Source: a virus
Length of the DNA stretch: 13,353 nt
UHGV virus genome: UHGV-1729168
Direction: 5' to 3' (one strand)
Made by a program: the position numbers. Numbering within the stretch: the stretch's first letter is position 1; every line of letters begins with the position of its first letter. Positions 9,001 through 13,353 of this stretch are shown here, in pieces.

Positions 9001-12000
9001 GGCGATACGGTGACGTGGGGGGGCTCGCTGTGGCACTGCAACAGTATGACCGAAGATAAACCCGGAGAAGCTCATTCATCAGCCTGGACCCTGGCTGCAA
9101 AACGTGGGCGGGATGCAGGAGGCGGAAAATGACGGCATTACTGACACTGGAGGAGATCAAGGCACATCTGCGTGTTGACCATGACGCGGATGATGAGATG
9201 CTGATGGACAAGGTTCGTCAGGCTACCGCCGTGCTGCTGGCCTACATTCAGGGCAGCCGGGATAAAGTGATTCGTGAGGACGGTGAACTGATCCCGGGTG
9301 AGGCATTAACCCGGATGAAGGGGGCTGCCATGCGACTGACCGGGATGCTGTACCGGAATCCGGATCTTGCGGAGCGGGAAGACCTCGTGCAGGGGGAGCT
9401 GCCGTTTTCTGTTTCCGTGCTGATTTACGATTTGCGTTGTCCGACGGTGTTATGAGGAGGGGGAATGGCAATATCTGCAGGTCGTCTGACACAGATGATA
9501 AGTGTTCTGAACCCGGTGTTAACCCGTAATGCTGCCGGAGAAATGACGGAAGAATGGGTGTCATGCGGGAAAATTCATGCGGATATCCGGGGCAGGAGCA
9601 GCCGGGAGCGGATGCAGTCCGGTGCGGAAATGGCGCAGGCGGAAATCCGCATCTGGGTGCGCGGTCAGTCCGGTCGGGAAATCACGGCAGCGTCACGACT
9701 TCATGTGCTGAGTGGTCCCTGGCGTGACTGTATCCTGAATGTTGTCGGGGTGCCCGTGCCGGATGCGACCGGCGGGCGCCTGGAAATTCTCTGTCGGCTG
9801 GGAGGGGAAAAATGATCGAAACCCTGCTGGATTTTTCGGGACTTGAAGAAATAAGCCGTGATTTGCAGCTTCTGAGTGGTGCAGAAAACAACCGGGTACT
9901 GCGTGAGGCAACCCGCGCGGGGGCGAATGAACTGAAAGAAGAAGTGGTGTCACGGGCACCGGTGCGCAGGGGAAAACTGCGCCGCAATGTGGTGGTCCTT
10001 TCCCGGCGCTCCCGCGATGGCGGGATGGAATCCGGTGTGTATATCCGTGGTGTTAATCCGGACACCGGCAACAGTGATAACACCATGAAGGCGGATAATC
10101 CCCGCAATGCCTTCTACTGGCGGTTTGTGGAAATGGGGACCGTGAATATGCCACCGCACCCGTTTGTGCGCCCGGCGTTTGATGTGCGCAGTGAACAGGC
10201 AGCTCAGGTGGCGATTGCGCGGATGAACCTGGCCATTGATGAGGTACTGAGACGATGACGGAGGCGGATTTGTATCCTCATCTGGCGCATCTTGCCGGCG
10301 GGCAGGTGTACCCGTATGTGGTCCCCCTGCTGGATGGCAGGCCGTCGGTGGCGCTTCCGTGGGTGGTTTTCAGCCTGATTTCATCGGTGTCTGCGGACGT
10401 GATGGGCGGGCAGGCGGAGTCCTCAGTGTCGGTGCAGATAGACGTTTATGCCGGGACTGTGACGCAGGCGCGTCAGATACGTCAGGACGCCCGTGAAGCC
10501 ATAATGCTGCTGGCCCCGGGATCCGTCAGTGAAATGCAGGACTATATTCCGGAAAACCGCTGTTACCGTGCAACCCTGGAGTTTCAGGTCACGGTGTGAC
10601 TTTTTCTTTTTTTCTACAAAACCCATACCCCGCCGCGTGCGGGTTTTTTATTATCAGGAGGCAGAATGTCTGCTTTGTATGAACGCTCACAGCTGACGCA
10701 GGTGATGATTTCATCTGCCCCGGCGACTGCTGAAACTATGGATAAGGCGGAATATCTGCGCCTGGACTGCACCATCAAGGAAGTCCAGTTCACCGCCGGT
10801 CAGAAACAGGATATTGATGTGACCACGCTCTGCTCCACAGAGCAGGAGAACATCAACGGTCTGGGGGCGTCGTCCGAGATTTCCATGTCGGGTAATTTTT
10901 ATCTGAATCAGGCCCAGAACGCCCTGCGTGATGCCTATGACAATGACACGGTGTATGCGTTTAAGGTGCAGTTTCCGTCCGGTAAGGGCTTTAAGTTCCT
11001 GGCGGAAGTGCGTCAGCACACCTGGTCATCCGGTACCAACGGCGTGGTGGCTGCAACGTTTTCACTGCGTCTGAAGGGTAAACCGGTGTCCTATGTGGTA
11101 CCGCTGGCGTTTGGGAAAAATCTGGATAAGACACTTACCGTGAATACCGGTGCGCTGCTGACAATGTCAGTCAGTGTCAACGGGGGAACGCCGCCTTATA
11201 AACACGCCTGGAAGAAGGATGGTCAGCCGGTAGAGGGACAGACTACTGACACTTTCAGTAAAGCCAATACGCAGTCAGGTGATAAGGGGGCTTATACCTG
11301 CGAGGTAACGGATTCTGCAGAACAGCCGCAGAGCATTACCTCTGATGCGTGTACAGTAACGGTTAATGGTGCGGGCGGATAAGGCTTATGGCAAAAGATC
11401 TGAAAACGCTGGCGCTGGCCAGACTGTCAGGGTTTCGTCATAAAACGGTGAAGGTGCCGGAATGGGGAAATGTCAGCGTGGTGCTGCGGGAGCCTTCGGC
11501 AGAGGCCTGGTATCTGTGGCAGGAAGTGCTCAATGGTGATGGAGAGGATGACGATACCCTGTCGGTGGTGGCGAAAACCCGCCGTAACCTGGAAGCGGAT
11601 GTGACGCTGTTCTGCGATGTCCTGTGTGATACGGATCTGCAGCGGGTGTTCACTCCGGACGACCGTGAGCAGGTGCTGGCCGTCTATGGTCCGGTACATG
11701 CCCGGTTGCTGCGTCAGGCACTGGAACTGATCGCTGATGCAGAGTCGGCCAGAAAAAAGTAGCCCGCCCGGAAATTCGCTTTCTGATGCGACTTGCGCTC
11801 CGTCTGGGGCGCACCTTATCCGAACTGCAGCACAGCCTGAGTGCGAGCGAGGCGATGATGTGGATGGAGTTCGACAGGGTATCCCCGCTGGGTGATGAGC
11901 GCGGGGATATCCGTAATGCACAGATCGTGAAAGCGGTTTTTGGGGCACAGGGGATGAATGTTGCACTGAAGGACGCCATGCTCTGCTGGGGCGAGGATGA

Positions 12001-13353
12001 GGACAAGCAGGAGATGGATCCGTTTGCAGAGCTGGAAAATGCTCTGTTATTTGCCTCAGAGAATTAATGTCAACCTTGCGGGTATTTATTACAGTATTTT
12101 TGGGGGAAATTAACTGAATGGAGTTATTTTATGAAGAAATTCATGTTGTTGATTTTCTCTGTAAGTTTTTTTCTGACGGGGTGTGCAACCATTGTCGGAG
12201 ATAAAACGCAGACTGTACAGGTAAACAGTAATCCGGCTGGCGCGGATTTTATTATTAAAGATGAGTCAGGGAAAACAATTTCTTCGGGTAAAACACCGCA
12301 GAATGTAACACTTGAAAAATCAGATGGCAGTTACTTCGGGAAAAAGAGTTATCAGATCACATTCAGTAAAGAGAATTATCAGCCCGTAACGCTGCCGATC
12401 AAGGCATCGGCTAATGGCTGGTATATTGGTGGTAACTTTGTCTTTGGTGGTATTGTTGGCTGGTTGCTTGTGGACCCATTCAATGGCGGCATGTATACAC
12501 TGAGTCCGGGAAGTCTGAATCCCGGGCTGGTACCCGAAACTTAATCAATAATCTGCTGATGAATAAAACCTGCTGCGGCAGGTTTTTTTTCGCCCGGAGA
12601 AAGGTGAATGGCGACGTTACGTGAACTGATTATCAAAATTTCGGCAAATTCGCAGTCATTCCAGTCGGAGATCCAGCGGGCTTCCCGCATGGGCAGTGAA
12701 TATTACCGGACCCTGCAGAATGGCGGGCGTCAGGCTGCCGCAGTCGCCCGGGAGCAGCGACGCGCCCTGGCTGAGCTGAACAGCCAGTTGACGGAAATCC
12801 GCGCTTCAGCTGCCGGAACGGCGGGGGCATTTGCAGGTGCCTTTGCCACCGGGCACCTGATTTCTCTGGCCGATGAATGGAGTTCCGTGAATGCCCGACT
12901 GAAACAGGCGTCGCAGTCATCCGATGAATTTTCGTCATCACAGAAAGTGCTGATGGATATCAGCCAGCGGACGGGCACGGCATTTTCAGATAATGCGGCC
13001 CTGTTTGCCCGCTCGGCAGCCTCAATGCGTGAATATGGTTACAGTGCTGATGATGTGCTGAAGGTGACGGAGGCCATTTCGACAGGACTGAAACTGTCAG
13101 GGGCTGGAGTTGCGGAATCCGGTTCGGTGATCACCCAGCTCAGCCAGGCACTGGCACAGGGTGTACTGCGTGGCGAAGAATTTAATGCTGTTAACGAAAA
13201 TGGCGACCGGGTGATCCGCGCGCTTGCTGCGGGGATGGGTGTGGCCCGTAAAGATCTGAAGGCAATGGCGGATGACGGAAAACTGACAGCGGATAAAGTG
13301 GTCCCTGCGTTAATCAGCCAGCTGGGGGTATTGCGTGATGAATATGCGGCCAT

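Follow-up and report, generated by a model that had tools for sequence, protein, structure and literature searches.

The slippery heptamer A_AAA_AAG at positions 11753..11759 (+ strand) of the virus genome UHGV-1729168, analysed as a single window of 13,353 nucleotides (nt), is with a probability of about 0.9 the site of a programmed -1 ribosomal frameshift in an HK97-type pair of tail assembly chaperones. The pair consists of gene G (11388..11762, +), whose zero-frame product is a tail assembly chaperone of 124 amino acids (aa) homologous to HK97 gp13, and of the T segment in the -1 frame (11759..12067, +; 102 codons plus TAA), the C-terminal part of a conceptual 226-aa GT fusion. From the sequence we infer that slippage occurs at 11753-11759, with an efficiency that would probably amount to a few percent.

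According to the proposed scheme, most ribosomes would stop at the TAG at 11760 and release the 124-aa chaperone G, while a minority would slip one nucleotide back on A_AAA_AAG, most likely by a classical two-tRNA slip on the perfect heptamer, in which the P-site lysyl-tRNA re-pairs from AAA to AAA and the other lysyl-tRNA from AAG to AAA. The slipped ribosomes would read GTA GCC CGC onward and end at the TAA at 12065, yielding the 226-aa fusion with the junction ...SARKK|VARPEIRFLM.... From homology to phage lambda G/GT, the shared G part would bind the tape measure protein and the T part would recruit the major tail protein (10666-11382). Assembly of the tail tube would require a G:GT ratio that is high and fixed, at a value given by the slip efficiency, and the virion would contain neither G nor GT. 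In lambda, for which the function as tape-measure chaperone and recruiter of the tail tube is established, the tape measure protein is coated by G and by the G part of GT, the G:GT ratio is about 30:1, and T has no independent start and works solely as GT (PMC5009743). Frameshifting between G and T is widely conserved in long-tailed double-stranded DNA (dsDNA) phages, for which the G:GT ratio matters (PMC5009743), and the conserved tail chaperone frameshift has been reviewed (PMC5009743, PMC10885494).

The G/T junction

Read in the zero frame from ATG 11388, gene G ends with AGA (11751-53), AAA (11754-56), AAG (11757-59) and TAG (11760-62), which agrees codon by codon with an earlier note on this DNA that had placed A AAA AAG at 11753-11759. 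In the -1 frame, the TGA at 11735-37 is followed by an open stretch that begins at 11738 and ends with the TAA at 12065-67. After the heptamer this frame reads GTA GCC CGC CCG GAA ATT CGC TTT CTG ATG and runs uninterrupted through the open reading frame (ORF) annotated at 11786..12067, as the same note had claimed. The resulting G/T overlap (11738..11762, +), delimited by the TGA of the -1 frame and the stop of G, is the sole stretch of 25 nt in which a -1 shift gives a G-T fusion. It holds six possible in-frame heptamer positions, the last of which is taken by A_AAA_AAG, flush against the G stop TAG (11760..11762, +). This stop was read directly in a TAG-C context and is a possible pause element that may aid slippage by halting the ribosome.

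A second zero-frame A_AAA_AAG was found at 4626-4632, nine codons ahead of the stop that ends the large terminase ORF (2998-4659). A -1 shift there would only replace the terminal 8 aa by a tail of 14 aa, with no obvious function.

Protein families and comparison with known systems

The G protein matched Pfam PF06222 (Phage_TAC_1) over its whole length (1-124/124, E = 7.9e-61, 203.9 bits at a gathering cut-off of 25) and PHROG 344, tail assembly chaperone, and the T half matched Pfam PF06223 (Phage_tail_T) over fusion residues 152-221 (E = 9.6e-18, 64.8 bits, cut-off 25.9). The conceptual 226-aa fusion aligned end to end with PHROG 14766 (1-221/224, E = 1.5e-85), a family whose length corresponds to the 224-aa HK97 gp14-type fusion, and was 61% identical in aa sequence to HK97 gp13/gp14 (GT) over the full length of alignment A1. 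The scan of NCBIfam with the fusion matched zero families. In the HK97 RefSeq record the gp13/gp14 pair is given as a joined coding sequence (CDS) 'translated due to a -1 frameshift', and the homologous pair in the HK446 record is likewise annotated as a joined frameshift CDS. The pair in the window belongs to the HK97 gp13/gp14 family by its G half, its T half and the end-to-end alignment of the fusion. It also fits the tail chaperone G/GT class of -1 frameshifts by the zero-frame heptamer inside the overlap, by a downstream ORF without initiation signals and by the gene order (major tail gene at 10666-11382, G, T in the -1 frame, tape measure gene from 12608); this class was reportedly described as a conserved type in long-tailed dsDNA phages by Xu, Hendrix and Duda in 2004.

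Apart from family membership, the locus resembles HK97 in that the same gene order follows the major tail gene, the two frames stand in a -1 relation, T and the tape measure gene are separated by a moron, and the same K|V junction leads into P-G-x-x-F-L-M-x-L-A-L-R. In contrast, the HK97 slip site is a non-canonical G_GAA_AAG located five codons before a TAA instead of a canonical A_AAA_AAG flush with a TAG, and the HK97 moron gp15 is a YebO-like protein of 62 aa, while the moron in the window is an unrelated 137-aa lipoprotein. Lambda G/GT (with GT rebuilt from the G_GGA_AAG site) has in common with the window the T domain PF06223, a Lys-AAG slip site close to the 3' end of G and the K|V junction, but its G belongs to PF06894 instead of PF06222, its proven slip site G_GGA_AAG lies five codons before the stop, its H gene follows directly after T, and its pairwise sequence similarity to the window fusion is non-significant. 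The heptamer is identical to those of E. coli dnaX (tau/gamma) and IS3/IS911 orfAB, which rely on the shift-prone E. coli lysyl-tRNA (PMC4066793, PMC1851650); unlike at those sites, no conserved downstream structure was found in the window, and in dnaX it is the shorter product that arises from the shift.

Survey of related loci

The survey set comprised 11 phage records and 80 bacterial genome loci, the latter retrieved with an alignment of fusion proteins. A motif-based script parsed 78 of these 91 loci, leaving 13 unparsed, and T was in the -1 frame relative to G in 76 of the 78; the two excluded loci were L060, parsed in a wrong frame relation that probably stems from a mis-hit of the motif, and L014, where G and T share one frame. 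All 65 distinct junction contexts, which range from Enterobacterales to Burkholderia and Bordetella, contained a heptamer of the type N_NNA_AAG or A_AAA_AAC inside the overlap. The commonest was A_AAA_AAG (32/65), followed by G_GAA_AAG of the HK97 type (9), A_GCA_AAG (7), G_GGA_AAG of the lambda type (6), G_GCA_AAG (5), A_AAA_AAC (3), A_GAA_AAG (2) and G_GTA_AAG (1). The G stop was flush with the heptamer in 43 contexts and 1-10 codons 3' of it in the other 22, HK97 and lambda among them. Canonical X_XXY_YYZ motifs occupied 41 of the 894 in-frame positions in the G/T overlaps versus 23 of 8151 in the rest of the G frame (odds ratio 17, Fisher p = 4e-26), and at the background rate the chance of any canonical heptamer in an overlap with six positions, such as the one in the window, is about 1.7%. 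In several relatives (L005, L007, L025, L028, L049 and L081) the overlap was reduced to 10 nt, exactly the heptamer plus the stop, as exemplified by the junction TAA AAA AAG TAG of phage phi467. The identity proposed in the earlier note, a conserved G/GT -1 frameshift, is thus supported by the protein families, by the homology to HK97, by the frame relation and by the heptamer present in every context.

Two deviating situations were encountered among the relatives. At position ~1810 of L014 (Candidatus Symbiopectobacterium endolongispinus), a run of nine A's replaces the eight A's followed by G of close relatives and brings G and T into one continuous frame; this is either an error in sequencing the homopolymer or a naturally 'locked' GT fusion carried by the decaying prophage of a symbiont. 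Four Klebsiella/Raoultella relatives (L009, L033, L036 and L040) have the junction GCA AAG TAA AAA TG, without a canonical heptamer and with an in-frame ATG two nt past the G stop, and in these T could be produced by translational coupling, instead of or besides frameshifting.

Search for stimulatory signals and the possible route of slippage

The dnaX and IS3 sites work with strong stimulators, an upstream Shine-Dalgarno (SD) sequence together with a downstream hairpin or pseudoknot, and reach high shift rates. Region 11760-11880 and its sub-windows were folded in search of similar elements, and the two predicted hairpins were then tested on an alignment of 19 sequences of diverse relatives. 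Of these hairpins, that at 11765-11790 is weak and that at 11795-11812 is rich in GC. The latter is located 35 nt from the heptamer, codes for the conserved A-L-R-L-G-R and breaks in relatives without compensation. A downstream stimulatory structure was rejected as a candidate for lack of significance, covariation and consensus structure, and the hairpin or pseudoknot that the earlier note had suggested looking for by RNA structure prediction did not materialize as a conserved element. The site does not belong to the stimulated -1 frameshift sites of the dnaX/IS3 type, which have a conserved hairpin or pseudoknot 5-9 nt from the heptamer. Inspection by eye only of 11735-11752 (GCAGAGTCGGCC) revealed nothing convincing as a dnaX-like upstream SD stimulator.

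Several of the results weigh against a programmed frameshift at this site. The region downstream of the heptamer folded no better than shuffled sequences (z = -0.4 to -1.6), RNAalifold found 0 consensus pairs among the 19 relatives, and no covariation in them exceeded that of shuffles or slid controls; with no conserved stimulator, the slip efficiency may be low. No canonical X_XXY_YYZ heptamer was present in 22 of the 65 contexts, so two-tRNA slippage is not universal in the family. The AAAAAAG heptamer is frequent in the window, with eight copies versus 1.9 expected. Finally, ATG 11786, annotated elsewhere as the start of T, is invariant across the relatives, and some independent or re-initiated T may conceivably be made from it at a low level.

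The lack of a canonical heptamer in part of the family bears on a second route to the same fusion, which is possible, albeit considerably less probable than the two-tRNA slip. A single P-site lysyl-tRNA would slip from AAG to AAA with the TAG in the A site (a 'shifty stop'), and the G:GT ratio would then hang on competition with release factor 1. The sole feature invariant in 62 of the 65 contexts is A_AAG, the other three having A_AAA_AAC, while the upstream triplet re-pairs poorly in 22 contexts (A_GCA_AAG, G_GCA_AAG, G_GAA_AAG and others); moreover, the flush stops of the 43 contexts occur as the tetranucleotides TAAA and TAGC. In E. coli reporters, A_AA.G was the best tetramer and A_AA.A_AA.G ranked among the top three -1 heptamers, but tetramers without a stimulator were barely above background, 0.147% versus 0.112% (PMC4066793). 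The shifty stop is further opposed by the 22 contexts with a stop 1-10 codons downstream, since the site is still used in them, HK97 and lambda included, and by the perfect heptamer of this window, which permits two-tRNA slippage. Both routes give an identical protein and nothing in the present data separates them. A broader version, in which the conserved recoding core of the whole HK97-type chaperone family is the lysine A_AAG tetramer against the G stop and not a two-tRNA heptamer, is somewhat more doubtful still. If true, it would mean that frameshifting competes with termination and that the G:GT ratio is tied to release-factor activity and stop context, not to RNA structure.

The annotated start of T and other alternatives

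A different possibility is that T is a free-standing protein of 93 aa, translated from ATG 11786 (11786..11788, +) either de novo or by re-initiation after the TAG at 11760, 23 nt upstream, which corresponds to its annotation in most database records. The invariance of this ATG, the separate T CDS in PGAP and many phage records, the short gap to the G stop that could permit termination-reinitiation, and the extra ATG right after the G stop in a few Klebsiella-type relatives are in line with it. However, the duplex energy with the anti-SD sequence 5' of ATG 11786 was -3.5 kcal/mol, a background value when compared with the mean of -3.48 over 318 plus-strand ATGs, while the other 13 gene starts of the operon had -5.8 to -12.8 kcal/mol, which bears out the claim of the earlier note that T has no strong ribosome-binding site. 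The coding signal also begins before the ATG: residues P128, F132 and L133 of the fusion, all of which precede it, are invariant in alignment A1, and the 23 nt from the G stop to the ATG vary with the codon periodicity of the T frame. In 42 distinct sequences with identical spacing between the G stop and the ATG, the entropy at codon positions 1/2/3 was 0.69/0.84/1.47 bits in this stretch and 0.63/0.09/1.36 bits just past the ATG; the stretch is under coding constraint in the T frame. Because of the background SD energy, the invariant residues and the periodicity upstream, T is unlikely to be translated alone. Furthermore, independent initiation has no need of the strict -1 relation and the slip motif kept in 65 contexts, overlaps were trimmed to exactly the heptamer, and lambda T has no start of its own and is functional only as GT (PMC5009743). 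Taken with this evidence, a free-standing T is improbable, and ATG 11786 most likely specifies a conserved Met inside GT (M134, in the motif F-L-M-x-L-A-L-R) rather than a start. In lambda, F-A-L stands opposite the Met position of F-L-M, although in a weak, non-significant alignment.

Even less probable is transcriptional slippage, whereby RNA polymerase would insert an extra A into the A6 run at 11753-11758 and bring G and T in frame. Such an insertion gives the same KK-V junction, longer runs such as A8 occur in some relatives, and the A9 run in the DNA of L014, with G and T in one frame, indicates that the run is indel-prone. Nevertheless, many relatives use G_GGA_AAG, G_GAA_AAG or GCA_AAG with just three to four A's, so the conserved mechanism cannot be polymerase slippage, and six A's are shorter than the runs that give appreciable polymerase slippage in E. 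coli.

The last explanation, a chance run of Lys codons in a decaying prophage with unregulated G/T expression, fits the excess of AAAAAAG and the second zero-frame copy without obvious function at 4626, but can practically be dismissed, being strongly disfavoured by the comparative data, in which the motif is kept at the exact junction across distant hosts, and by the neighbouring structural genes of the window, all of which are intact with Pfam matches. Only two AAAAAAG copies, at 11753 and 4626, are in the zero frame of a long ORF, so the motif alone proves little, and it is its position and conservation that carry the argument for a programmed frameshift site.

The region between T and the tape measure gene

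The 540-nt interval between T and the tape measure ATG at 12608 holds a lipoprotein ORF of 137 aa (12131..12544, +), a moron with a lipobox LTGC (MKKFMLLIFSVSFFLTGC) that matched PHROG 6823 (function unknown) and, below threshold, PEGA. The earlier note had G/GT lying upstream of the tape measure gene; the class stood, with the moron intervening as in HK97, and T and the tape measure gene are not adjacent. The tape measure gene itself (12608..13353, +) is represented by its 5' part, which matched Pfam PF20155 (TMP_3, E = 1.4e-48) and continues beyond the window. The G-T region is 98% identical to Stx phages, but homology to them ends at 12037 and resumes at ~12559, and the insert at 12038-12558, absent from the Stx phages, has a GC content of 0.39-0.43 compared to 0.55-0.60 in its flanks. 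Its left joint falls inside the last ~7 codons of T, which read LLFASEN* here versus LSLAAMS*. This arrangement was found in 5 of 5,426 complete E. coli genomes with ~94% identity. A truncated prophage, considered since the Stx homology stops at 12037, was rejected: the tape measure gene resumes at 12608 after the inserted moron.

The moron occupies the site of HK97 gp15, and Salmonella and Klebsiella relatives hold other small ORFs there. HK97 gp15 was the first moron described and is a superinfection exclusion protein (PMC3594210). Judging from the shared site, a surface or entry-exclusion role for the moron at 12131-12544 would be a reasonable guess. A paper on Tai tail assembly interference offered no relevant link to the moron site.

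A GC hairpin (CCTGC-TGCG-GCAGG) with a T8 run after it is located at 12569-12590, just 5' of the point where the tape measure gene starts; a scan for consensus terminators missed it. Stx2a_WGPS2, although devoid of a moron, has the same element, which is therefore part of the backbone rather than of the insert.

The late operon

The genes around the chaperone pair form an HK97-type late operon on the plus strand, with the small terminase (2438-3001), the large terminase (2998-4659), a protease-capsid fusion (4723-6660), the portal (6872-8236), head-tail connector and completion genes (9129-10599) and the major tail protein with an Ig-like C-terminus (10666-11382), which precedes G. A 299-aa ORF after the portal gene (8233-9132) was without a confident Pfam match; the counterpart in Stx2a_WGPS2 is longer by 324 nt. 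PGAP fuses the portal gene of E. coli JNEC-KY202 and the ORF that follows it into a single 'frameshifted' portal pseudogene, perhaps another artefact of annotation. A further ORF of 113 aa, 5' of the terminase genes (1066-1407), carries a TonB C-terminal domain (PF03544, E = 1.4e-14), an unusual cargo in a phage late region.

Consequences for annotation and tail biology

In PGAP/RefSeq and in the majority of Stx-phage records, G and T appear as two separate genes. The objection of the earlier note to 11786..12067 as a free-standing gene is fair, given the missing SD, the coding constraint upstream of the ATG and the joined CDS of HK97. Following the model of the HK97 record, G and T should be entered as one CDS joined by ribosomal slippage (11388..11759, 11759..12067), of which the T ORF at 11786-12067 forms the 3' portion. 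Annotation correction is the main use of the finding, which is biologically nothing new, while the family survey adds the modest extra that A_AAG is the invariant element, that it directly abuts the stop in most cases, and that no conserved RNA stimulator accompanies it. The feature itself is already known and represents one more instance of the conserved ratio-setting mechanism for siphovirus tails.

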